A stretch of DNA of 64,000 nt from Candidatus Bathyarchaeota archaeon (GTDB taxonomy: Archaea > Thermoproteota > Bathyarchaeia > Bathyarchaeales > Bathycorpusculaceae): NCBI GenBank assembly GCA_963739305.1, contig CAVTZU010000017.1:1-64000 (forward strand), in the 5' to 3' direction. Both the position numbers and the translations under genes were made by a program. Shown one piece after another: positions 1 through 59,147 of the stretch (position 1 is the stretch's first letter; each line of letters begins with the position of its first letter). The notes beneath the pieces were generated by a model, which ran no database searches, was not told the origin of the DNA, and was given only the letters and a program-made list of their open reading frames with translations.

Positions 1-5
1 ATAAC

Positions 6-722
6 GTGGCTGTAAAAGACCTGACACTGTCCGTATTACCAGGTGAAGTTCATGGTCTTCTCGGTCCGAACGGGTCAGGCAAAAGCACGACTATGAAAAT
101 GGTCATGAGTATAGTCAAGCCTGATTATGGCAAGATCAGCCTCAGCGGCGTAGATGTGTTGCGGCAACCCATCGAGGCGAAGAGACTCGTGGGTTACGTT
201 CCAGAATTGCCATATCTTTATGAATACCTAACGGCTTCGGAATACTTGGACTTCGTAGGCACAGCGTATGGCATCGACCTAAAGATTAGACGAGAGAGGG
301 TTGATGAGCTGCTTAAGGCGCTGCAGATGAACGAGCACGTGAATGAGATTATGAGTGGCTTCTCTCAAGGAATGAAGCAAAAAATAGCAATTACGGCGGC
401 TCTGCTTCACCGTCCACGTGCCCTCATATTGGATGAAGCGTTGAACGGTTTAGATCCTAGATCCGCCAAGATCGTCAAGGATATCCTTCAGCGCTTAGCC
501 GGCGAAGGCGTCTCAATTCTCTTTAGTACCCACGTTCTCGAAATTGCAGCGGCCATGTGCAGCAGGATTACTATCATGAATGAGGGAAGAATCATTGCCG
601 AGGGAACGGTGCAGGAGCTGAGGTCAAAGGCTGGGATGCCGGGTTCAACGTTGGAGGATACTTTCCTGAAGCTTACCGGCAGTGAGGACACAGAGAAGAT
701 TGTTGAGGCATTGAAGCTTTGA
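6..722 (+). CDS. ABC transporter ATP-binding protein (5' end probably outside window)
   Basis: Walker A GPNGSGKS, signature FSQGMKQK, Walker B LILDE, H-loop STH. Confidence 0.93.
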   Translation: MAVKDLTLSVLPGEVHGLLGPNGSGKSTTMKMVMSIVKPDYGKISLSGVDVLRQPIEAKRLVGYVPELPYLYEYLTASEYLDFVGTAYGIDLKIRRERVDELLKALQMNEHVNEIMSGFSQGMKQKIAITAALLHRPRALILDEALNGLDPRSAKIVKDILQRLAGEGVSILFSTHVLEIAAAMCSRITIMNEGRIIAEGTVQELRSKAGMPGSTLEDTFLKLTGSEDTEKIVEALKL

Positions 723-5851: not shown

Positions 5852-5859
5852 GCGCGCGC
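5852..5859. repeat. Alternating (GC)n junction motif
   Basis: GCGCGCGC one base after the STAND gene stop codon; a 6-mer follows at 6342-6347. Confidence 0.8.
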
Positions 5860-6402
5860 TTTCCTTTTTCATGGTATAGTTTGCAGGATTGCCATCAGAA
5901 TAGGACATTAGATTTATTAGTGGTACTGTCGGAGCATGCCAGTTATAGCGAACTGGTTTGACGGTAGGCCGAACACGTTAGTGTCAAGTGACCGGAATAC
6001 ATTGATACAGAGAAAAAAAGGAGAGTTGCGGGTGATGTCTCCATTAGCCTAGGATTCAACTGTCATCCCTGGCTTTTTGGCATATATCCCCGGTCAGTGG
6101 TCGAACCACAGGTCTCTGCATGAACCATGATATCAGCATTCAAACATTCCTACAGGGTTGGGCGGTTGGATTATTTCCTCGCACCCGCTGAAATCGGCTT
6201 GACTTTTTCCCATGGTCTTTTGAATATGAAGAGTTTTGTCGTGCAGAGGGCTTATGAAGTCGCATCGTTGGGGCTGAGGATTGACGAGCAAATCGTCTTC
6301 AAGGAGATTGCCAAGGTTTCATAGGAAATAACGAGTCGTTTGCGCGCTAGGCTGCGCAGAAGAGAATGTTTTAATTTGTTCATCCCCTTCTTAATCGTCT
6401 GT

Positions 6403-7194
6403 ATGGAGCAAGCAGGTTTCAGCGAAGAGCCGAGACGTCAGCCAATCCGGCGAAGCTTCATAGTCGTTCTATGGATCTGTCTGCTCTTGTTCTCGTCCTT
6501 CGTAATCGTATTGCTAGCACAAACCTTCTTGAGACCGCCGATACGTGAGAACATATCAAGTTCAGACTGGAGCGGATACGTTGTTTTCTCAGATTCAGTG
6601 AACCCTGCGCCTGTGATAAGAAACGTCAGCGCGTCTTGGATCGTTCCGACAGTGTCAGTCTCTCGAAGAGACACATACTCGGATGTGTGGATAGGCGTCG
6701 GAGGGCAATTTGACAATTCCCTCATTCAAACCGGAACCGAGCAGGACTCAGAAAACGGCAAACCTGTGTATCTAGCATGGTACGAGCTTCTGCCCGACTA
6801 CTCAATTACGATAGTGGCAGTGAACGTGTCAGCGGGAGACACGATGACAGCTTCAATAAGTCTGCTAGATGCTGGAACCAACGAATGGCTTGTCGAAATC
6901 GCTGACGCCACGAATGGGCAGAGCTTCAGTCAGAGCTTCGTCTATGTTTCATCTCGACTCTCTGCCGAATGGATTGTCGAGAGGCCCACTGTCAACGATG
7001 CCCTGACCACGCTGGCAGACTTCGGGAGCGTAACTTTCACTGACATCAAAGTTTCAACAGATTCCGTTTCTGGAACCGCAGCAGATTTTCCATTTTCTCA
7101 GGTCACGATGTATGATCGTCAGAACAATCAGCTTGTCACCGTGTCTCAGCTAGCTTCACGTGGAACAACTTTCAACGTGGCCTACTTGCCTTGA
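6403..7194 (+). CDS. Membrane-anchored G1 family glutamic peptidase (peptidase A4/eqolisin-like)
   Basis: N-terminal TM helix; SSDWSGY, WIGVGG, LIQTGT (catalytic Q), AWYE, SAEWIVERP (catalytic E). Confidence 0.88.
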   Translation: MEQAGFSEEPRRQPIRRSFIVVLWICLLLFSSFVIVLLAQTFLRPPIRENISSSDWSGYVVFSDSVNPAPVIRNVSASWIVPTVSVSRRDTYSDVWIGVGGQFDNSLIQTGTEQDSENGKPVYLAWYELLPDYSITIVAVNVSAGDTMTASISLLDAGTNEWLVEIADATNGQSFSQSFVYVSSRLSAEWIVERPTVNDALTTLADFGSVTFTDIKVSTDSVSGTAADFPFSQVTMYDRQNNQLVTVSQLASRGTTFNVAYLP

Positions 7195-7566
7195 GTGCGT
7201 TAAGGGGCGACGTTGGCATCTAGAACGTGTGCAGAGAAATTTGAAGGGGAGAAGGAGTGCATCCGCAGACCCGAGGGAGAAAGGAGAAAATGAAGCGGGG
7301 AAAATAAATGTGTTTTGCGGCTTTGCACTCCTTGTCTTTCTTGTAGTGTCCCACTCATTCATTAGATTTGGTTTGTAACACCTGAGCGTGCATTTGATAA
7401 GTTCTTGAGCAGCCACGTAGAAGACATTGCCCAAAGACTGAAAAAAGGGGTTATGGCATAGATTAGGGTCGACGAATACCGCAAGCCAACACAATGAATC
7501 GTCATACTTCTGCCGTAAAGCTCGGGTTCGAAAAAGCTAAAAGGTGCTCGGGCAACGTGTAATCTC

Positions 7567-8640
7567 ATGAAATATTCTTTTAAAATAGGGTCAGTTTGGG
7601 GAATTCCCATTGAATTGCACCTGACCTTCATTCTTCTAATAATCGGGGTTCTCGTCCTTTCTTACCCTCAGTTTTACCTTTTTGTCCTTGTTTTGTTTCT
7701 ATTCATCTTCGTCGTTCTCCATGAACTGGCGCATTCGGTCGTTGCGCGTCATTACAGAATTCAGGTGCGGAAGATAGTTCTTTACCCCATAGGCGGGGCT
7801 TCTGAGATTGAGGAGATATTTGATAACCCACGCGTAGAGTGGCGAGTTGCTATTGCTGGGCCTTTGACCAGCTTTGCGATTGGCGGTTCTCTTCTTGCTA
7901 TTTCCAGAATTTTCGTCGTGGAAGTGCCGAGAACGGCTCTCGGGTCGTCTCTCTCTACCGTTGGAAGCCTCGCGCTCGATCTTGGACTGTTGAACTTGTT
8001 GCTTGGGGCATTCAACTTGATCCCTGCTTTTCCGATGGATGGAGGCAGAGTTTTCAGGGCTTTTCTGGCGGAACACATGAATTTCTCCGATGCGACGAAA
8101 TATGCAGCTTTCTTGGGAAGGTTGTTTGGGATAGTCATGGCCATTGTCGGGTTTATCTTTCCGAGTTACTTTTTGTTGATCGTCGTAGGGATTTTCGTCT
8201 ACATAGGCGCTACCGAAGAAGCCGAATCGACTATCGTGTCAACAACGTTGGCGAGAGTGAGAGTCAGAGATGTTATGTCTTCCGAGGCGGCGACGGTTAC
8301 TCTTGATGAAACTCTTGACGAGGCTTTGGAGACGATGTTTAAGGCACGATACCACGATGCCTTGGTGGAGAAGGATAGTGAGTTGTTGGGAATCGTGACC
8401 TGGGATGAGATAATGAAGGTTAAGAAAGAGCAGAGAAGCCTGATGATGATTGAGCAGCTTCCTCTGATTCAGGCTTCTGTTCTGGTTGACGATGCTGTTC
8501 TTGAGGCGCACAAGGTGATGCTCAAACAGAGAATAGACTTGGTTCCAGTGGTTGAGAAGGACAATCCGCGAAAGATCCTTGGCGTTCTGACGAGCGAAGG
8601 AGTTGCCCTTGCATACGAGAAAGCGAAAACGCTCCGATGA
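7567..8640 (+). CDS. Site-2 protease (M50) with CBS domains
   Basis: HELAH, AIAGP, FNLIPAFPMDGG; C-terminal CBS pair. Confidence 0.93.
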   Translation: MKYSFKIGSVWGIPIELHLTFILLIIGVLVLSYPQFYLFVLVLFLFIFVVLHELAHSVVARHYRIQVRKIVLYPIGGASEIEEIFDNPRVEWRVAIAGPLTSFAIGGSLLAISRIFVVEVPRTALGSSLSTVGSLALDLGLLNLLLGAFNLIPAFPMDGGRVFRAFLAEHMNFSDATKYAAFLGRLFGIVMAIVGFIFPSYFLLIVVGIFVYIGATEEAESTIVSTTLARVRVRDVMSSEAATVTLDETLDEALETMFKARYHDALVEKDSELLGIVTWDEIMKVKKEQRSLMMIEQLPLIQASVLVDDAVLEAHKVMLKQRIDLVPVVEKDNPRKILGVLTSEGVALAYEKAKTLR

Positions 8641-8669
8641 CTTCAAACTGTAGAGTCGGTGTCGTATTA

Positions 8670-8678
8670 GCGCGCGCG
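8670..8678. repeat. Alternating (GC)n junction motif
   Basis: GCGCGCGCG, intergenic, just before a TTAAATA TATA-like box. Confidence 0.8.
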
Positions 8679-8739
8679 AGATTAAATAGTTCGAAACAAG
8701 TATCCGTACAGTGACTGTTGAAATGAACATTGAGAGACG

Positions 8740-9204
8740 ATGAATTTGGAGAGCATTGTCGGAGTCCTAAAGGGACTGAAAGGTAGAACAGCAGACATGA
8801 TCTATGACTTGTTCTTCACGGAAAGAAGAGTGATAGCCGCAATCGTGCTTCACCCGTCAGACTTTGCCGACCAATATGGCAAGCTAGATCCTACAACTCT
8901 AGTGGTGGGAGGTTACTTCAAACAGAGAGAAATCAAGGTTCGATCCCTACAGCTGATGGATGAAAGGAGATCAGCCTTCGAAGGCAAGACGGCGGATGAG
9001 ATCGCTGCTTCACACAAGAACAACGCAGAGATCGAATATGAAAACGTCACTTCGGTCCGAATCAAGAAAGGTATCTTAGGAACGTCTCTAGAATTTGTAG
9101 TTCAAAATCCTCCTGGCAAGAAGATAAACTTTTCACTTGACGGAAATGAAGTGGACGAAGCCGAAGGATTGATGAAGAAGGTTCTTTCAGACAAGGCGAG
9201 ATGA
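8740..9204 (+). CDS. Hypothetical protein (possibly PH-like fold)
   Basis: Clean ORF; YDLFFTERRVI and IEYENVTSVRIKKG are reminiscent of PH-like domains. Confidence 0.65.
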   Translation: MNLESIVGVLKGLKGRTADMIYDLFFTERRVIAAIVLHPSDFADQYGKLDPTTLVVGGYFKQREIKVRSLQLMDERRSAFEGKTADEIAASHKNNAEIEYENVTSVRIKKGILGTSLEFVVQNPPGKKINFSLDGNEVDEAEGLMKKVLSDKAR

Positions 9205-9453
9205 TTCTTTTCAGGACGGGGTGCGGTCTACCCCTGAAACTTTTGTAACGTTTTTTGTAATGTTGCCTGGTACCTCATTTGTTCTTTGAACAGTTTTCGG
9301 TCCATGGTGAACGAAGTTTCTGCTCACGATGTGGAGTTTTTCTCTTACAAAATGGTTTTGATGTGGTCTTTGGGGCGTTCGAAATGTTTTTTTGCGTCTT
9401 TCAGTTTATGCGTTGGTGAGCGCGTGGGACATGGTTGTAACGGGGATAACAGG

Positions 9454-10170
9454 ATGAGTCGGAGTTTAGGGTTCTCGGCGTTGTTTGTTTTCTCTATTTT
9501 GACAATTTCCTTTTTCGGTTCATATGGATGTTGGTTTGCGGGAGCAAACGCTAGTGTTAGTGGGCTTCCTCCGATGAATTTGGCAGTTGTCGGGGTCAAT
9601 GGCACCGAGGTTGTCGTGTTGAATGAAACTGGTATCGCATCGTTGCCTTCTTATTCGGGTTGTGGCGGTTATGAGAACCAAATCGGGTTGGTGAAGGAGT
9701 ATGGCAACTATACGGGTGTGTCTTTGTGGACTCTTTGTAGCTTGGTTGGGGGGTTGACGAACACGAGTGTTGTGAAGGTGACGGCAGCGGATAACTACAC
9801 GATGAACTTCACGTATGCTCAGGTTCAAGGCGAATTTTTAGCCTATGACATAGCAACTGGGCTACCGACAAATCACACTCTACCATTCGTGCCGATCATT
9901 GCGTACTATCTCAACGGTTCCAACATTCCTTCAGCTGAAGGTCCACTCAGACTGGCCATAGTTAGTCCCGAAGGATACGCGACACCATCGGCTTACTGGG
10001 TAAAAGAGGCGATTCGGATTGAGATCATCGAAACCAGCGTCCCAGAGTATCCTCTCGCGGCCTTTCTGCTATCATTTCTGTTGACGTCTTTGGCGACGAT
10101 GTTGAGCTTGAAGGTTCGTGGCATTGGGCGACGAACCTCTTGTCTTCCTGCGCATTCTTGGAAAAAGTAG
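9454..10170 (+). CDS. Secreted/surface protein with molybdopterin-oxidoreductase-like domain and VPEYP+TM C-terminal anchor
   Basis: Signal-like N-terminus; YTGVSL, TAADNY, IIAYYLNG, GPLRL, WVK motifs; PEF-CTERM-like tail. Confidence 0.7.
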   Translation: MSRSLGFSALFVFSILTISFFGSYGCWFAGANASVSGLPPMNLAVVGVNGTEVVVLNETGIASLPSYSGCGGYENQIGLVKEYGNYTGVSLWTLCSLVGGLTNTSVVKVTAADNYTMNFTYAQVQGEFLAYDIATGLPTNHTLPFVPIIAYYLNGSNIPSAEGPLRLAIVSPEGYATPSAYWVKEAIRIEIIETSVPEYPLAAFLLSFLLTSLATMLSLKVRGIGRRTSCLPAHSWKK

Positions 10171-50999: not shown

Positions 51000-51890
51000 T
51001 TGAGAACCGTGTCAAGCGATAAAGCGATTTTCAGTTTCAGTGTTAAGCACAAGCCAGTTGTCCGCGTCAGAGTAAATGAACTCATTGTTCTTAAGACCGA
51101 AGACGCTTTTGGCGGGCAAATAAAGAGTGACAAGGATTCCGTTGAAACGCTCGACTGGTCCAAGGTTGATGGGGCCACCGGTCCAATATTCATCGAAAAC
51201 GCTGAACCAGGCGACACTCTGGTCGTGGACATCATGAGCATCAAAATCCCTTCCAAAGGAGTTATAGTTACGGTTCCGAAACAGGGAATTCTGGCGGAAA
51301 AAAGGGTCAAGCCCTTGACTAAGATAATCAAGATACACAAAGATCACGTCGAATTTAACAAGGTCAAGCTTAAAACCAGTCCAATGATTGGAACCATCGG
51401 CGTGACTCCTAAGAGCGAAATACCCTGCGGCTCGCTTGGCAGGCACGGCGGGAACATGGATGTCAAAGAGCTGACTGCTGGAACCAGACTGTATCTCCCT
51501 GTTCTTGTCGAAGGCGCATTGTTTGGTGCTGGCGACGTTCATGTTGTACAAGCAGATGGTGAGCTCTGCGTGTCTGCGGTTGAAGTGGCCAGCGAAATAT
51601 CTCTGAAGTTTTCACTGATTAAGGGAAAGCATCCTGAGTGGCCGATACTGGAGACGAAAGATTCATACGCTTTCTTAGCTTGCGACGAGACATTGGACGC
51701 GGCTGCAAGAAACGCTACTCTGGTTGCAGTTGAGGCTTTGATGCGTGAATATGGTTGGTGCTTTGAGGAAGCCTACATGTTTGGCAGCTTGCAGGTTGAT
51801 CTTAGGATAAATCAGGTCGTGGACCCGAAGAAGGGTGTTCGAGCCGTGATTTCTAAGGATCATTTGAGACTGGCTAGTATGCTTGTCTAG
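51000..51890 (+). CDS. Acetamidase/formamidase family protein
   Basis: TGPIFIENAEPGD, PMIGTIG, HGGNMD, GDVH..QADGE. Confidence 0.92.
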   Translation: MRTVSSDKAIFSFSVKHKPVVRVRVNELIVLKTEDAFGGQIKSDKDSVETLDWSKVDGATGPIFIENAEPGDTLVVDIMSIKIPSKGVIVTVPKQGILAEKRVKPLTKIIKIHKDHVEFNKVKLKTSPMIGTIGVTPKSEIPCGSLGRHGGNMDVKELTAGTRLYLPVLVEGALFGAGDVHVVQADGELCVSAVEVASEISLKFSLIKGKHPEWPILETKDSYAFLACDETLDAAARNATLVAVEALMREYGWCFEEAYMFGSLQVDLRINQVVDPKKGVRAVISKDHLRLASMLV

Positions 51891-52234: not shown

Positions 52235-52372
52235 CTACTTCTTCTTGACCTTTTTCATCGGAGCTTCGCAGCACATCAGCTCACAGGTTGGTTCGCATCC
52301 ACAGGGTTCGTCAATGACCACGACGAGACCGCATTCTTCACATTTGTAGGATTCACCCTTTTTCTTAGCCAT
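52235..52372 (-). CDS. Unannotated 45-aa Cys-rich protein (desulforedoxin-like with extra Cys)
   Basis: MAKKKGESYKCEECGLVVVIDEPCGCEPTCELMCCEAPMKKVKKK; GGAGGTGA SD and TATATA upstream. Confidence 0.85.
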   Translation of the reverse strand: MAKKKGESYKCEECGLVVVIDEPCGCEPTCELMCCEAPMKKVKKK

Positions 52373-52785: not shown

Positions 52786-52853
52786 ATCTTCCTTGTCAAG
52801 GTTTGGTTCAAGGGGCAAAGTTAAATTCTAAGAGCCAGAAACACATAACGCCT

Positions 52854-53192
52854 ATGGACTTGAAAACAGCTTTGGGGGCTGCCGCAATTGCCGTTCTTCT
52901 GTTCTTCGGCATAATATTCGCATGGGCTTCGGTCTATGCAATAACACGACTATACGTTGCCGCAGCGCTGTTCGTTGTTGCGTTTGTTATCGCTTTCTTC
53001 ATTTCGAGAAAGCCTAAGACTATAGTGCAGCAGTTCGAAGTGTCTGGTGAAATGAAAGCTGTCACAATCAAGTGTCCCAACTGTTCAGGATCAATTGACC
53101 CAAACAGCATCAAAATCGTCGATGGTGTTCCCTATGCGACGTGTCCGTATTGTGGGAACAGGTTCGAGGTGACCGAGGAACCCAAATGGTGA
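52854..53192 (+). CDS. Two-TM membrane protein with C-terminal zinc ribbon
   Basis: Two hydrophobic helices, CPNC...CPYC, ends EEPKW; TTAAAT about 30 bp upstream. Confidence 0.85.
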   Translation: MDLKTALGAAAIAVLLFFGIIFAWASVYAITRLYVAAALFVVAFVIAFFISRKPKTIVQQFEVSGEMKAVTIKCPNCSGSIDPNSIKIVDGVPYATCPYCGNRFEVTEEPKW

Positions 53193-54832
53193 AAAACCGT
53201 CTGCTCATTGCTTTTTTTGCAGTCGTCGCTGTTTCTCTGATGCTTACAAATTGCGTGTCCGCGCAGCGTGCTTATCATTTTGATCAAGAGTGGGTGAAGA
53301 TCTGGATCAACGCGGATGGAAGTATCGACCTGTTCTACAACATAAGCATAACTTTGGATTCTGGGGACAACATAAATTTCGTCACCGTGGGGCAGCCCCA
53401 GGGTGATTTCACGAATGGAACAGCCATCGACCAGTATGGAAACGTCCTGTCAACATCAGACGCGAGTTCAGGAAGCGATTACAAGGTTCAGGTTAACCTC
53501 GCCAACCCATTGATGGCTGGACAAACAGTTTGGTTCACGGTCACCACGAACGTTGCAAACATGATCTATGAAGACAATGAAACTAACGTCGGCATGTTAT
53601 TCATACCCACTTGGTGGACGCAAGCAACGGTGACTGACCTTCGTGTTTCAATCGTCCTACCTCTTGGAGTGGCTAGCAGCCAAATTGGCACTTCAGTCAA
53701 CTGGGACAACTTGCTCACCGAGCCTGACGGGCGATTGGCGGTATTCTGGGAAAGACAGAACCTTAGTCAGGGCCAGAAGTACGAGTTTGGAGTTTCTTTC
53801 CCCAAAGGATTTGTGAGCAAGTACGGGCAGAAGGCCACGCCCCTTGTTGCATTCTTCAGGGACTACGGTCCTGGGCTTCTGGGGGTTGGAGTTTTCGTCG
53901 CCTTCGTTGGAATCGTCGCGCGATTTGTTCGGAAGAAAGGTTACCAGTTGCCGAAGATCAGCATGGAAACTCTCGGAGCGCGACGCGGCTTGACAGCGGT
54001 GGAGGCTTCCTATCTCATAGGCATGAAGCCTCCGATGGTTGTGACGGAGATTCTGTACAGTCTGCTTCAGAAGAGGGCGGTCTGGGTAGAGGGAACTAAA
54101 CCGTCTATCAAACTGAGAATCATGGATCAATTCAAGAACAAGAAAGGAACCTCGGATGTTCCTCTTCGGTACTACGAGATCGATTTCCTCGGTGCTCTTA
54201 AAGAAAATGGTGCGCTTGATGAGGAGAAGCTTGCCAAGACAGTAATGTACCTAAGAGATTCCGTGGAGGAAAAGATGCGTGGTTATGAGAGGGCCGGTAC
54301 GATCGAATATTATAAGCAGATCGCCGGGAAGGCTTGGACGCAGGTTGAACAGGCAGGGACCCCTGAATTGGCTTCGAACGCCTACGACGAACAACTGCTG
54401 TGGCTGTTTCTGGACCCCAACTATAAGGCAAGGACCGACACGGCTTTTCGGGACAGAGTTTTTCAGCCCAGCCCCCTCTGGTTCTGGTACTGGTACGGCT
54501 ACCAAAACTACTTCTCGCACCCGACTTATCAGCCGAACATAGGAACGCCAAGTCAATCCGGCAAGCCACCCACGATTCCAGGAGCAGATTTTGCGAACAA
54601 CGTTGCCTCCGCAGTTGAGAACACGTCGAACTCAATAGTGGTCAATCTTGAGAAATTCGCTAATTCAATATTGCCGTTTTCACCTGGCAAAGCTTCACAG
54701 TCACCAGCTCATAGTAACGCAGACTGCGTGTGTGCATGTGCTGCCTGCGCCTGTGCCTGTGCATGCGTCTCTTGTGCGTGTGCCTGCGCAGGCGGCGGAG
54801 TCGGGATTAAAGGGGATGGTTTGAAAAGATGA
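53186..54832 (+). CDS. Membrane-anchored protein (DUF2207-like N-terminal domain) with C-terminal CxCxC-rich tail; candidate radical SAM substrate
   Basis: Signal peptide, WINADGSIDLFYNI beta domain, TM helix followed by RKK, tail CVCACAACACACACVSCACACAGGG. Confidence 0.85.
   Translation: MVKNRLLIAFFAVVAVSLMLTNCVSAQRAYHFDQEWVKIWINADGSIDLFYNISITLDSGDNINFVTVGQPQGDFTNGTAIDQYGNVLSTSDASSGSDYKVQVNLANPLMAGQTVWFTVTTNVANMIYEDNETNVGMLFIPTWWTQATVTDLRVSIVLPLGVASSQIGTSVNWDNLLTEPDGRLAVFWERQNLSQGQKYEFGVSFPKGFVSKYGQKATPLVAFFRDYGPGLLGVGVFVAFVGIVARFVRKKGYQLPKISMETLGARRGLTAVEASYLIGMKPPMVVTEILYSLLQKRAVWVEGTKPSIKLRIMDQFKNKKGTSDVPLRYYEIDFLGALKENGALDEEKLAKTVMYLRDSVEEKMRGYERAGTIEYYKQIAGKAWTQVEQAGTPELASNAYDEQLLWLFLDPNYKARTDTAFRDRVFQPSPLWFWYWYGYQNYFSHPTYQPNIGTPSQSGKPPTIPGADFANNVASAVENTSNSIVVNLEKFANSILPFSPGKASQSPAHSNADCVCACAACACACACVSCACACAGGGVGIKGDGLKR
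54725..54799 (+). repeat. Cys-Ala repeat coding segment (10 Cys in 21 aa, then GGG)
   Basis: Read directly; mixed synonymous codons. Confidence 0.92.
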
Positions 54833-56172
54833 GTCTCTTTAACAGGATCTTCCGGCCCCCAAGAATTCCACAAGGTCGATACACCTATCGTGGGAAAGGT
54901 AACCTGGCAGGGTTGGCGTTGCAGCTTCGCGTTGAGCCTAACGGTGAAAGCATTTTGGTGATAAACGCTGACCGAGTGCTGTTTCTCAATGAATCCGCAA
55001 CAGCATATGCCTACTATTACGTGCACGGGTTCACGTCGGAACAGATACTGAAGAAGATACGCCGAACTTACAGGGTCAACGCGAAGACAGCGAAGGAGCA
55101 CTACGAGAAACTTATCTACACGATCAATACTTTGGCGCACACCGAAAAAGTCTGTCCCATTTCTTATCTCGATGTGAAAACAGTGGAACCTTTCACTCAA
55201 CAGCTTTCTGCACCTCTTCGCATGGACTTAGCTCTCACTTTCAGATGTCAGAACGACTGCGTTCACTGCTATGCGGGTGGACCGCATGAGACCGAGGAAT
55301 TGACCACCGAGCAATGGAAACACGTTATCGACCGAATGCACGAAATCGGCGTGTTCATTCTCACGTTCACGGGGGGTGAACCGACTCTTCGAGATGACCT
55401 GCCTGAACTATTGATGTATGCACAGAAGAAAGGTGCGGTGGCCGGACTCGTTACGAACGGCAGGAAATTGAGCGATAAACGCTACGTTGACAAGCTTGAA
55501 AAGTCTGGCCTAGATTTTGTGCAGGTCACATTGGAGTCCCATAAATCTAAGATTCATGACCAAATGACCGCTGCCGAAGGAAGTTGGAAAGAGACTGTTG
55601 CCGGAATCACCAACGCTGTCCTTTCGAAGATCTACGTGACAACCAACACGACGCTCAGCAAGTACAACGCGCCAGAATTCTTGGACACGATTGATTTCAT
55701 CAAGGCCTTGGGAGTTGATGGTTTCGGATGCAACAGCTTGATCTACTCAGGAAAAGCAAGTGAAGTTGATGAAGAATTCGCGCTGCCGCTTGAAGCGTTG
55801 AACGAACTTCTTCCCAAGATCCGCGACAAAGCCAACCAGGTCGGGCTCAAGTTTCTATGGTATACGCCCACTCAATACTGCCGCTTCAATCCTGTAAAAC
55901 TTGGGTTAGGCGTTAAGTCCTGCACAGCCGCAAACGTCAGCATGTGCATTGCGCCCAATGGCGATGTGTACCCGTGTCAAAGCTACTTCGAGAGCCTCGG
56001 CAACGTATTCAAGGATGATTGGCAGAAGATCTGGAACAGTCCACTCGCAAAGAAGCTTAGGAACAGAGAGTGGGTGGAGCCAAAATGCAAAGATTGTCCT
56101 GAACTGCAGATCTGCGGTGGAGGCTGCCCGTTAGAGCTGAACAAAAAAGATTACGTCTGCCTCGAAACCTAG
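54829..56172 (+). CDS. Radical SAM/SPASM enzyme with N-terminal PqqD-like RiPP recognition element
   Basis: CQNDCVHC, TGGEP, SPASM CTAA..CIAPNGDVYPC..CKDC..CGGGCP..C; N-terminal LRVE..ILVIN..LFLNESA then three helices. Confidence 0.92.
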   Translation: MSLFNRIFRPPRIPQGRYTYRGKGNLAGLALQLRVEPNGESILVINADRVLFLNESATAYAYYYVHGFTSEQILKKIRRTYRVNAKTAKEHYEKLIYTINTLAHTEKVCPISYLDVKTVEPFTQQLSAPLRMDLALTFRCQNDCVHCYAGGPHETEELTTEQWKHVIDRMHEIGVFILTFTGGEPTLRDDLPELLMYAQKKGAVAGLVTNGRKLSDKRYVDKLEKSGLDFVQVTLESHKSKIHDQMTAAEGSWKETVAGITNAVLSKIYVTTNTTLSKYNAPEFLDTIDFIKALGVDGFGCNSLIYSGKASEVDEEFALPLEALNELLPKIRDKANQVGLKFLWYTPTQYCRFNPVKLGLGVKSCTAANVSMCIAPNGDVYPCQSYFESLGNVFKDDWQKIWNSPLAKKLRNREWVEPKCKDCPELQICGGGCPLELNKKDYVCLET

Positions 56173-56456
56173 CCTCCGCACCTTTTCCTCGTCGTTTTCA
56201 CAGTTTTTGCGTAAGAACGTGTCAGTTTCCTTTTCTGCGCGTGATTCAGTTTCTTGATTCTTTTCTCCCTTTTCATCGCCTCTGACCTGGAACTGAATTC
56301 CTCGACGTAAACAAGACCCTTCGGCTTATGCATCTTCGTGAATCTTGCACCGTTCCCGTTGACGTGCGTTCTGAAGCGTGATCTCACGTTTTTCGTGTAT
56401 CCAGTGTAGAAGTTGTCTCCTTCGCAGAGTATGATGTAGACGAAGTAAGGGGTCAT
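56169..56456 (-). CDS. GIY-YIG nuclease family protein (UPF0213-like)
   Basis: YFVYII..FYTGYT..R...H..G.GARFT..EAMKRE. Confidence 0.9.
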   Translation of the reverse strand: MTPYFVYIILCEGDNFYTGYTKNVRSRFRTHVNGNGARFTKMHKPKGLVYVEEFSSRSEAMKREKRIKKLNHAQKRKLTRSYAKTVKTTRKRCGG

Positions 56457-57189: not shown

Positions 57190-57276
57190 AGTAAATCAAG
57201 GTTGAGAAGCAATAGTTAACTTTGTTGGGTTTGGGTTTTGGATAAAACTTTACCCCACAGACTTGGGATGTATGCT

Positions 57277-57284
57277 GCGCGCGC
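57277..57284. repeat. Alternating (GC)n junction motif
   Basis: GCGCGCGC, intergenic. Confidence 0.8.
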
Positions 57285-57337
57285 CTCCCAAAAGACCATT
57301 GGGTTTATTGTCTTTCAAGGAATTGCAAGAAAAAGTG

Positions 57338-57426
57338 TTTGGAACAGCTTTGGAACACTATTTTGGAACAAAATAATGGCCTTTGACGATGTTTTCACTA
57401 ATGCGCGCGCTACAAAGTTTGGAACA
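57338..57426 (+). repeat. Four copies of TTTGGAACA (putative operator repeats)
   Basis: Exact copies at 57338, 57349, 57362 and 57418; the last abuts TTATTTAA. Confidence 0.75.
57403..57410. repeat. Alternating (GC)n junction motif
   Basis: GCGCGCGC upstream of the ABC operon promoter. Confidence 0.8.
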
Positions 57427-57489
57427 TTATTTAAGGAAAATTGGCTATCTACCAAGATATCACACCGTCTAAGCCAAGGAGTAACTACC

Positions 57490-58410
57490 TTGATAGAAAC
57501 TGATAGCCTAACCAAAAAATTTGGAGACCTGACAGCGGTAGACAACCTCACCCTACAAGTTAATGATGGTGAAGTTTTCGGTTTCCTAGGACCAAACGGT
57601 GCAGGAAAAACCACCACCATAAGGATGCTTTGCTGTTTAATATCAAAAACTAGTGGGAACGCAAACATAGGCGGCTATGACATAGGAAAAAAGGAAGACT
57701 CAATTAAAATCCGCAAAATCATCGGTTTAGTTCCTGACAACGTCGGACTATCTGAACACCTAAGCGCTTATGATAACCTGGATTTCTACGGAAAAATATA
57801 CGATTGCACAGATACTGAAAGAAAACGGAGCATTAAGCGTTTCCTAGAAATGCTGGGGCTGTGGGAAAAGAGGAATGTTTTAGCTGGTACCTTTTCGAAA
57901 GGTATGAAGCAGAAACTAGCCATTGCCCGTGCACTTATCCATGACCCACAAATACTGTTCATGGATGAGCCAACAGCCAACTTAGATCCTGAGTCTGCCA
58001 AGACAGTTAGGGAGTTTATTCTTGATTTAAAAAAGCAAAAGAAAACCATTTTCTTAAACACCCACAACCTCGATGAGGCCCAGAGGATATGTGATAAAAT
58101 AGCTATTCTGAACACGAAGCTTCGGGCAATAGGCACTCCTGATGAACTTGAACGATCTGTTCATGGCAGAAGCACAGTTATCACATTGGAGCAAGTCAAC
58201 GATGCCGTTTTAAACTCTTTAAAGAAGTTGTCGCTTAGAAACCTCACTGTTGACGGCAACAAGGTAACGTTTGATGTGGTGGATCCTGATAAAGAGAATT
58301 CGCCAGTTGTAGAATCCCTCGTGCTGGCTGGCGGTCACGTGCGGGCCATTAACGTTGTGGGTTCGACTTTGGAAGATACCTATTTGAAGCTTGTGAGGGA
58401 GTCCGCATGA
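57490..58410 (+). CDS. ABC transporter ATP-binding protein
   Basis: GPNGAGKT, FSKGMKQK, FMDEP; probable TTG start after AAGGAG. Confidence 0.92.
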   Translation: MIETDSLTKKFGDLTAVDNLTLQVNDGEVFGFLGPNGAGKTTTIRMLCCLISKTSGNANIGGYDIGKKEDSIKIRKIIGLVPDNVGLSEHLSAYDNLDFYGKIYDCTDTERKRSIKRFLEMLGLWEKRNVLAGTFSKGMKQKLAIARALIHDPQILFMDEPTANLDPESAKTVREFILDLKKQKKTIFLNTHNLDEAQRICDKIAILNTKLRAIGTPDELERSVHGRSTVITLEQVNDAVLNSLKKLSLRNLTVDGNKVTFDVVDPDKENSPVVESLVLAGGHVRAINVVGSTLEDTYLKLVRESA

Positions 58411-59147
58411 GATTGTCAAAAGCATGGCTTGTTGCCTCAAGAGATTTTAAAATATTTAGGCATCAGAAAAATATTCTGTACTCAATCATCGTTTTTCCCA
58501 TTATAATTTCAGTTCTCTTTCCAGCCATACTAGAGTTTGCTGGACAACGAAACGCTGGGCTCCTCACAACTGCAAATCTTCCAAACCTATTAAATTCATT
58601 TTCATTCTTTATTGTCATTGGAGCGGCGTACATTCCATTAGGAATTGCTTCTTATAGCATAGTCGGCGAAAAAATTGAGAAGAGTTTAGAACCGCTCCTC
58701 GCTACTCCTCTTACTGACGGGGAGATTTTGCTTGGAAAAGCAATTGCTGCAGTGTTGCCAACTTTAGCTGCAATGTATGCTGGAGCGACAGTTTTTATGG
58801 TTGGCGTTGATGCAGTGACTTTCGGGAAGCTTGGCTATAATTATTTTCCAAATTGGACTTTTGGTGTTTTGCTGCTGATCCTAGTTCCCGTCGCTGTTGT
58901 TATGAGCGTGCTATACAGCGTTATTGTCTCATCGAGAGTTAATGACGTACGCAGCGCTAATGGTTCTGGGATACTAATTTTATTGCCATTGTTAGCAATT
59001 TATTTGGCTAGCGAAATACGCATAATAAGTCTAGACATAAGCGGGATTCTCATAATCTCAGGTATCCTTTTCGCGATTAATATCGCTCTTTATTTCGTAG
59101 GTACAGCAGCTTTTCAACGAGAGGAAATACTAACAAAGTGGAAGTAG
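58407..59147 (+). CDS. ABC-2 type permease
   Basis: SIVGEKIEKSLEPLLATP..EILLGK; about six TM helices. Confidence 0.9.
   Translation: MRLSKAWLVASRDFKIFRHQKNILYSIIVFPIIISVLFPAILEFAGQRNAGLLTTANLPNLLNSFSFFIVIGAAYIPLGIASYSIVGEKIEKSLEPLLATPLTDGEILLGKAIAAVLPTLAAMYAGATVFMVGVDAVTFGKLGYNYFPNWTFGVLLLILVPVAVVMSVLYSVIVSSRVNDVRSANGSGILILLPLLAIYLASEIRIISLDISGILIISGILFAINIALYFVGTAAFQREEILTKWK

Follow-up and report, generated by a model that had tools for sequence, protein, structure and literature searches.

A conserved cassette of anaerobic archaea and bacteria pairs a radical SAM/SPASM enzyme with a membrane protein carrying a Cys-Ala tail as its candidate substrate

To our knowledge, nearly all that is known of radical S-adenosylmethionine (SAM)/SPASM maturases concerns small peptides that are secreted, and we know of very few proven cases in which a whole protein receives a radical modification (thioether or related), namely QhpC and CrpA. 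The system considered here is a three-gene cassette, g1, g2 and g3, encoded on the + strand at 52854-56172 of the window, the 64,000-nucleotide (nt) stretch of DNA that was analysed (positions 1 to 64,000 of contig CAVTZU010000017.1, assembly GCA_963739305.1, from a Candidatus Bathyarchaeota archaeon). Together they form a conserved module that occurs in anaerobic bacteria and archaea. As judged from its domain matches and modeled fold, g3 has the architecture of peptide maturases, with a recognition element (RRE) of the kind found for peptides that are made on the ribosome and modified after translation (RiPPs) followed by radical SAM and SPASM domains; g2 is a single-pass membrane protein whose Cys-Ala tail would be the substrate of g3.

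The three-domain architecture of g3 is that of SkfB (6efn), CteB (5why), AlbA, SuiB (5v1t) and PapB, several of which make Cys thioethers. The maturases of sactipeptides, ranthipeptides and streptide act on short leader-plus-core substrates that are cleaved and exported; with g3, no such short precursor, protease or exporter is conserved. PqqE (with PqqD and PqqA) and MftC (with MftB and MftA) use a PqqD-type recognition domain and are among the highest-scoring curated models for g3; in both cases the precursor ends in an invariant motif on which the enzyme works. The precursors of PQQ and mycofactocin are small free peptides with Glu/Tyr or Val/Tyr, whereas the g2 tail consists of Cys-Ala repeats, and accessory genes for PQQ or mycofactocin are absent.

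The nearest published case is CrpC from Methanococcus voltae, an RRE-radical SAM-SPASM enzyme that installs thioethers on the 28.8 kDa Cys-rich protein CrpA (PMC13692751, Sept 2026). It has several likenesses to the cassette: the enzyme gene lies beside a gene for a full-size Cys-rich protein in an anaerobic archaeon, C-terminal repeats of CrpA are modified by CrpC, and the product is a modified protein rather than a peptide. CrpA is, however, soluble, with ~10% Cys and ten 17-residue repeats containing C-x-x-Q/D, while g2 is a membrane protein with ~2% Cys, all within a 25-residue Cys-Ala tail that has no such acceptor motif; CrpC belongs to another enzyme family, and its substrate is soluble and rich in repeats. 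The screen described in PMC13692751 required at least 5% Cys for proteins above 250 amino acids (aa), so g2 would be missed by it. The literature searched describes neither a Cys-Ala tail of this kind nor a DUF2207-radical SAM pair, the supplements of PMC13692751 (Supplemental Data set 1) lying outside the search; the papers found on Bathyarchaeota together with SPASM concern lipids.

The features of the cassette are as follows; TM denotes transmembrane and AlphaFold2 the source of the models.

52814-52827, + strand: BRE/TATA-like box GGCAAAGTTAAATT upstream of g1, a putative promoter element
52854-53192, + strand: g1, 112 aa, two TM helices and a zinc ribbon
53175-53189, + strand: g1 C-terminal EEPKW, the second invariant C-terminal motif of the cassette
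53186-54832, + strand: g2, 548 aa, single-pass membrane protein with the Cys-Ala tail
53270-53803, + strand: g2 extracytoplasmic β-sandwich, residues 29-206, from the AlphaFold2 model
53840-53929, + strand: g2 TM helix, residues 219-248, from the AlphaFold2 model
54581-54670, + strand: g2 conserved amphipathic helices, residues 466-495, alignment columns PGADFANN..VENTSN.IV.NLEKFAN
54725-54799, + strand: g2 Cys-Ala tail CVCACAACACACACVSCACACAGGG, residues 514-538, with its ten Cys arranged 3-4-3, proposed as the substrate of g3
54829-56172, + strand: g3, 447 aa, radical SAM/SPASM enzyme with an N-terminal PqqD-like (RRE) domain
54874-55140, + strand: g3 RRE/PqqD-like domain, residues 16-104, four strands and then three helices
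55246-55269, + strand: g3 CxxxCxxC (C140/C144/C147), within the PF04055 match at residues 136-291
55921-56160, + strand: g3 SPASM domain (PF13186) with C365, C383, C420, C423, C429, C433 and C444; C351 and C373 lie upstream

The Cys-Ala tail and its inheritance with g3

The tail of g2 is strongly conserved; the motif C[VI]CAC..CAC.CACVSCACAC is found in 119 of the 120 closest g2 homologs, and the columns C521...A535 are invariant in the g2 alignment, which runs from conserved helices through a variable Pro/Ser/Gly-rich linker to the invariant tail. At 50% identity, 113 of the 150 best g2 representatives carry a Cys-Ala tail; 30 of the 37 tail-less representatives are fragments of less than 480 aa, and the remaining seven, which are longer, match mainly the N-terminal domain or have sequence continuing beyond the tail position. 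Three tail types are seen, the ten-Cys type in Bathyarchaeia and other Thermoproteota, a type ending ...CACACACAGCACACAGGGR-COOH that is carried by Chloroflexota and by the majority of other bacteria, and a type ending CACACACACACAGGGR-COOH in Methanomassiliicoccales and Heimdallarchaeota. Thirty distinct DNA stretches encoding the ten-Cys tail have TGC for Cys 154 times and TGT 146 times, and draw on each of the four Ala codons, with the residues unchanged; as the codons are scrambled and the residues constant, selection acts on the peptide, and the repeat is not a DNA microsatellite artefact. The tail is predicted to be disordered (pLDDT, the predicted score in the local distance difference test, <50 in the AlphaFold2 model of g2). 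The genome of the window has a single tail of this kind and a single g3 ortholog, which scores 900.6 bits to the ortholog profile vs 110.8 for the next paralog.

The original prediction called for a test of co-occurrence between the tail and this radical SAM enzyme, and tail-bearing homologs are indeed found with it. Among 61 genomes related to that of the window, which are kin and not independent samples, g2 matches occur in 25, of which 23 are strong; the radical SAM ortholog (E<=1e-40) occurs in the same 23, and in all of them its coordinates adjoin those of g2. The two weak matches, G013 (E 2.3e-4), which is ribophorin-like with a coiled-coil C-terminus and lacks the Cys tail, and G055 (E 1.1e-15), which is g2-like with a tail of C-H-S-A-type repeats, come from genomes in which the radical SAM ortholog is not found at E<=1e-40. 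Scanning a single genome for each prokaryotic species provides a cross-phylum sample of 72 loci from at least 10 phyla, with orthologs of the radical SAM enzyme called at >=380 bits to the ortholog profile; these loci were found via the tail motif, and radical SAM orthologs that go without a tail protein are detectable in the search of the 61 relatives alone. An intact ortholog lies directly 3' of g2 in 61 of the 72 loci, is split into two open reading frames (ORFs) in three and lies upstream in two, and one further locus has a frameshifted tail with the enzyme adjacent, giving a clustered radical SAM gene in 67/72. Of the other five loci, four belong to genomes that have the ortholog at another site (398-600 bits, 47-62% identity); one locus ends 89 nt past g2, and a radical SAM match is not found in that genome.

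The 72 loci include bacteria (Chloroflexota, Nitrospirales, Acidobacteriota, Aminicenantes, Hydrogenedentales, Sabulitectum and Clostridia) and archaea (Bathyarchaeia, other Thermoproteota, Methanomassiliicoccales, Heimdall-/Hodarchaeota, Nanoarchaeia and Thermoplasmatota), with most loci from Chloroflexota; the earlier framing of the system as one of an archaeon is thus too narrow, the module not being archaeon-specific. Neighbour families were obtained through all-against-all clustering across the 72 loci, with families shared by at least 14 loci considered; the conserved neighbours are g1, g2, the radical SAM enzyme, a paralog of the latter and a class-I SAM methyltransferase only. No leader peptidase or exporter is among these families, an ABC ATPase cluster being present in just 7/72 loci, and no short precursor gene is conserved across the sample or present in the operon, which is without intergenic space; the absence of a short precursor from the operon had been noted in the original prediction.

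The three ORFs of the cassette are joined by stop/start overlaps (translational coupling), ATGGTGA at 53186-53192 between g1 and g2 and ATGA at 54829-54832 between g2 and g3, both read directly in the sequence. A longer g1 ORF from 52719 is possible; ortholog starts correspond to 52854. The box GGCAAAGTTAAATT is kept ~27-31 nt 5' of the g1 start in 13/13 Bathyarchaeia loci compared, and is likely to be an archaeal BRE/TATA element that would give a leaderless or short-leader operon transcript. The original prediction had described three chained genes behind one TATA-like box, encoding a zinc-ribbon protein that crosses the membrane twice, a ~550-aa protein with a signal peptide, a β-rich domain, a TM helix followed by RKK and a Cys-rich tail, and a radical SAM enzyme with CxxxCxxC and a full set of SPASM Cys; each of these elements is borne out by the ORFs, the overlaps, the conserved box and the domain and model data given below.

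Related ends occur elsewhere. In the genome of the weak match G055, which belongs to another taxonomic family within the same order, a 597-aa g2-like membrane protein (L099, contig C121, 1196-2989, - strand) is 28% identical over g2 residues 232-535, and its end is built of C-H-S-A / C-V-H-x-A repeats; a non-SPASM radical SAM gene is convergent at 49-1104. Locus L078 (Chloroflexia) has tandem g2 paralogs at 5854-7635 and 7707-9635, both ending CACACAGCACACACAGGGR, with the radical SAM gene and g1 upstream of them and not downstream.

Folds and families of the three proteins

The AlphaFold2 model of g2 was made from a 36-row alignment and has a mean pLDDT of 78.6. It features a signal-like helix (5-21), a β-sandwich (29-206) and a TM helix (219-248) followed by RFVRKKGY; past the TM helix are a winged-helix-like unit and a helical bundle, the amphipathic helices at 466-495 (466-484 and 488-495, directly before the tail region) and a disordered segment (497-548). 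The C-terminal half of g2 is predicted to be cytoplasmic by the positive-inside rule, and helices 466-495 are a candidate leader-like docking segment for the RRE.

g2 has no family matches in Pfam or NCBIfam. Pfam DUF2207 (PF09972) gives no match at E<=0.1 and relative P0319 reaches 23.9 bits (cut-off 24.4); DUF2207 clusters are among the Atlas neighbours of g2 at 0.93-0.98, and some database names call relatives 'DUF2207 domain-containing'. Foldseek aligns the outer domain and TM helix of g2 with RPN1 from human and Ost1 from yeast (E 6.6e-11 to 1.6e-8), and also matches the N-domain of M1 aminopeptidase; TM-scores to ribophorin I/Ost1 are low (~0.27) because a single domain matches. One relative of g2 carries the NCBI name 'oligosaccharyltransferase subunit 1'. 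Unlike g2, neither DUF2207 nor ribophorin I/Ost1 has a known Cys-Ala tail or radical SAM partner. When 1.84 billion representatives are searched exhaustively with HMMER, 550 g2 clusters (50% identity) are found at E<=0.001. The module is a first functional handle on the large, uncharacterised family of DUF2207-like membrane proteins. Heimdall-/Hodarchaeota have the tailed version, which may bear on how Asgard 'ribophorin I homologs' are read.

g3 reaches 86.5 bits for Pfam Radical_SAM (PF04055), whose cut-off is 29.5, and the 57 orthologs compared all keep C140xxxC144xxC147. The SPASM motif is CX9-15GX4C...CX2CX5CX3C...C; g3 matches SPASM (PF13186) at 49.5 bits (cut-off 21.5) with the seven-Cys pattern C365...G378xxxxC383...C420xxC423x5C429x3C433...C444, of which six are invariant in the 57 orthologs, C444 being the exception. 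The number of auxiliary-cluster ligands was considered as a means of telling thioether from C-C chemistry and is not decisive, given the surplus Cys (C351, C365, C373, C383) and the incomplete conservation of the last one.

The AlphaFold2 model of g3 has a mean pLDDT of 63.5, the SPASM part being poor; the extra N-terminal domain (residues 1-125) is modeled better, with block means of 70-91 over residues 11-100, strands at 16-53 and helices at 55-104. The predicted PqqD-like nature of this domain is upheld at the level of the family: Pfam PqqD (PF05402) is matched by 37/57 orthologs at E<=0.01 (best E 4.4e-9), and the Heimdall ortholog scores 26.5 bits, above the gathering cut-off of 23.4. The modeled fold and structural alignments agree with this assignment; it is for the window protein itself that the PqqD match fails. 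Foldseek places SkfB, SuiB, BlsE, CteB, PqqE and TigE at the top ranks for the g3 model, and VIA-align superposes residues 29..433 on SkfB 12..390 (Z 17.1, 301 aligned, root-mean-square deviation 4.6) and 26..437 on SuiB 5..439 (Z 15.1, 333 aligned, root-mean-square deviation 5.1), in both cases with the N-terminal domains included. Structural matches to viperin, MoaA and HydE were set aside, as they reflect the shared radical SAM core only.

Among the 25 NCBIfam matches listed for g3, the tetrapyrrole models score highest (score/cut-off in bits: NirJ2 154/500, AhbD 132.8/500, AhbC 126/650); these matches begin at g3 residues 136-137, past the extra N-terminal domain, and the tetrapyrrole enzymes have no N-terminal RRE. 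Lower scores are given by MftC (TIGR03962, 120.5/265), PqqE (TIGR02109, 119.9/381.35; 152.5 bits for the Heimdall ortholog), AlbA (NF012164, 93.4/850), the ACGX system enzyme (TIGR04340, 81.6/400), SkfB (TIGR04403, 78.8/300) and StsB (NF045574, 75.4/625), and the CrpC family TIGR04463 (rSAM_vs_C_rich) scores 35.6 against a cut-off of 525, over the radical SAM core only. Assigning a chemistry from curated models was dropped, since all 25 are far below their cut-offs and roughly equidistant. By these profile comparisons the g3-g2 pair is outside every curated Pfam and NCBIfam family queried; an existing model covering the pair, which would have removed its novelty, is found in neither database.

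g1 is a small membrane protein that combines two hydrophobic helices with a cytoplasmic zinc ribbon (CPNC...CPYC), for which the zinc-ribbon matches in Pfam and NCBIfam are all sub-threshold. A g1 homolog is upstream of g2 in 58/72 cross-phylum loci, contigs that end early being counted in; none is found beside g2-g3 in the Heimdall, Thermoproteota and Clostridia loci examined or in L045, where the g2-g3 pair persists. g1 is proposed to be a frequent but dispensable accessory partner. In the Heimdall locus L089 a different small zinc-ribbon ORF is in place of g1.

Possible chemistry of the tail and competing explanations

It is hypothesized that the RRE of g3 would dock on the cytoplasmic C-terminal region of g2, probably at the helices before the tail, and that the radical chemistry of g3 would then take place in cis on the disordered (Cys-Ala)n tail. 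The tail would remain on g2, so that the product would be a membrane protein bearing the modification, as opposed to a secreted peptide. Intramolecular thioether crosslinks (Cys-S to carbon) would be the most likely chemistry, each removing 2 Da and one free thiol; they are the first choice because Cys-directed SPASM enzymes and CrpC/CrpA (PMC13692751) provide precedent. Such crosslinks would turn a floppy tail rigid, and the product may bind metal or act in redox reactions. Of the parts of this proposal, the modification of the tail by g3 in some form is considered probable; that it is a thioether, by analogy with the enzymes named, is a tentative assignment. Equally tentative is the suggestion that a protein-derived cofactor or structural element is made, the tail becoming a polycyclic thioether or heterocycle that serves as a redox or metal device on the cytoplasmic side of the membrane. 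That the tail is invariant over two domains of life does argue for a structural, cofactor-like or metal/redox product and not for a diversifying antibiotic.

Several observations weigh against tail modification by g3. The Cys-x-Cys repeat resembles the metal-thiolate sites of metallothioneins, and the tail could function unmodified. The link between g3 and the tail is drawn from co-inheritance and sequence context, and the radical SAM gene is unlinked from g2 in three genomes. The catalytic domain of g3 scores higher for tetrapyrrole and cofactor enzymes than for sactisynthases, all far below the cut-offs; the window g3 has no Pfam PqqD match at E<=0.1; and the invariant EEPKW of g1 is another possible substrate. 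The tail also has none of the C-x-x-D/E/Q/N-type acceptor motifs of CrpA and the ranthipeptides (motif as given in PMC13692751). This lack, and a catalytic domain at least as close to PqqE, MftC and NirJ-type enzymes as to sactisynthases, speak against thioethers in particular. A predicted complex of g3 with g2 residues 455-548 scores 0.02 and 0.01, the mark being 0.32, and speaks neither for nor against the interaction.

In one rival explanation the tail is an unmodified, metallothionein-like element binding metal or iron-sulfur, with the substrate of g3 elsewhere; the best candidate is the EEPKW of g1, a motif that may serve either for docking or as another substrate. A Lys-Trp crosslink could, for example, be formed on g1 as in streptide/WGK-type peptides, and the RRE would merely hold the enzyme at the membrane complex. 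With alternating Cys-x-Cys, the thiols of an extended strand would all point to the same side; the carriers named belong to lineages known as anaerobes, in which free thiolates are stable. The E[EA]PKW end of g1 is invariant in 21/21 aligned homologs from many phyla of bacteria and archaea, even in loci without the g1-g2 overlap, and g3 does match the KxxxW maturase model (69.1 bits) and WgkB (114.1 bits), in both cases below threshold. These Lys-Trp maturase scores are, however, far below the cut-offs of 500 and 650 bits; g1 is missing from lineages in which g2-g3 persists, and is less frequent than the radical SAM enzyme (58/72 vs 67/72); and pure metal binding leaves the strict co-inheritance with an RRE-bearing maturase unexplained. 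This explanation is considered rather unlikely.

A further alternative takes the tail as a true RiPP core that is cleaved and released or exported, the 500-residue body of g2 being a giant leader. The order of helices, linker and tail does resemble leader, linker and core, and an ABC transporter pair lies 1 kb downstream (57238-59147); however, no protease or exporter family is conserved over the 72 loci. Release is disfavoured on this ground, and the peptide release by proteolysis that had been offered as one outcome in the original prediction is unsupported. The tail is also predicted to be cytoplasmic, and its near-invariance over two domains of life is unlike the diversifying secreted RiPPs; a near-invariant core is more like the cofactor precursors PqqA and MftA. 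A released product is thus thought very improbable. Of still lower probability, in our estimate a long shot, is that g3 is a membrane-lipid enzyme like Tes/GDGT-MAS or the GMGT synthase Gms, with g2 as its membrane tether. GDGT-MAS (7tol) is among the matches of g3 (E 4.6e-10 by sequence, Z 15 by fold), both partners of g3 are membrane proteins, and Gms is a SPASM enzyme of anaerobic archaea according to PMC11186832. The 7tol sequence match is, however, limited to the radical SAM core (residues 130-236), the PqqD-like domain binds peptides in known enzymes, the module is most often met in bacteria, namely Chloroflexota, and the invariant tail would be unexplained. Gms is set apart from g3 by its published domain description and not by sequence; its N-domain is six helices according to PMC11186832, whereas that of g3 is strands and three helices, PqqD-like.

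If modification of the g2 tail by g3 is correct, the cassette would be a membrane-bound, sequence-invariant case of whole-protein radical modification spread over at least 10 phyla and two domains of life; it would be a widespread, housekeeping-type process, Asgard lineages included, and not an antibiotic pathway. The proposal is directly testable: it concerns a pair of proteins, a single mass shift is expected, and one carrier is in culture (the Ornatilinea apprima isolate, locus L054). The window adds the ten-Cys (3-4-3) variant of the Bathyarchaeial tail, the conserved promoter box and the 23/23 co-occurrence, and also the ribophorin-I/Ost1-like outer fold, the EEPKW of g1 and the (C-H-S-A)n tail in a neighbouring family without this radical SAM ortholog.

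Extra partners and flanking genes

Chloroflexota cassettes (L021-L061 and others; for example L025:3817-4974) have an extra gene for a ~386-aa paralog of the radical SAM enzyme, in which a PqqD domain is joined to no more than part of a radical SAM domain. A class-I SAM methyltransferase (for example L026:8747-9490) is present in 36/72 loci, its carriers being Chloroflexota, Methanomassiliicoccales, Heimdall-/Hodarchaeota, Thermoplasmatota and Sabulitectum; it is not in the Bathyarchaeia loci L038, L053, L055, L057, L059, L062, L066, L071 and L072. Neither gene is beside the cassette in the window.

A 45-aa ORF at 52238-52372 (- strand) was considered as a short precursor and rejected, as it recurs in two loci of the same genus only (L004 and L007); it has nine Cys, is desulforedoxin-like (Desulfoferrod_N, 21.2 bits, cut-off 23) and is divergent from the operon. 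The genes flanking the cassette, which are not conserved with it across phyla, are:

51000-51890, + strand: acetamidase/formamidase-family protein (PF03069, 138.8 bits)
56169-56456, - strand: GIY-YIG nuclease-domain protein (68.4 bits)
57238-59147, + strand: ABC transporter ATPase and permease pair, ~1 kb downstream of the cassette

The public sequencing runs listed as holding DNA of the window are 20 of DNA type and none of RNA type; four of the 20 hold at least half of the sampled words, and these are peat metagenomes from a single study.

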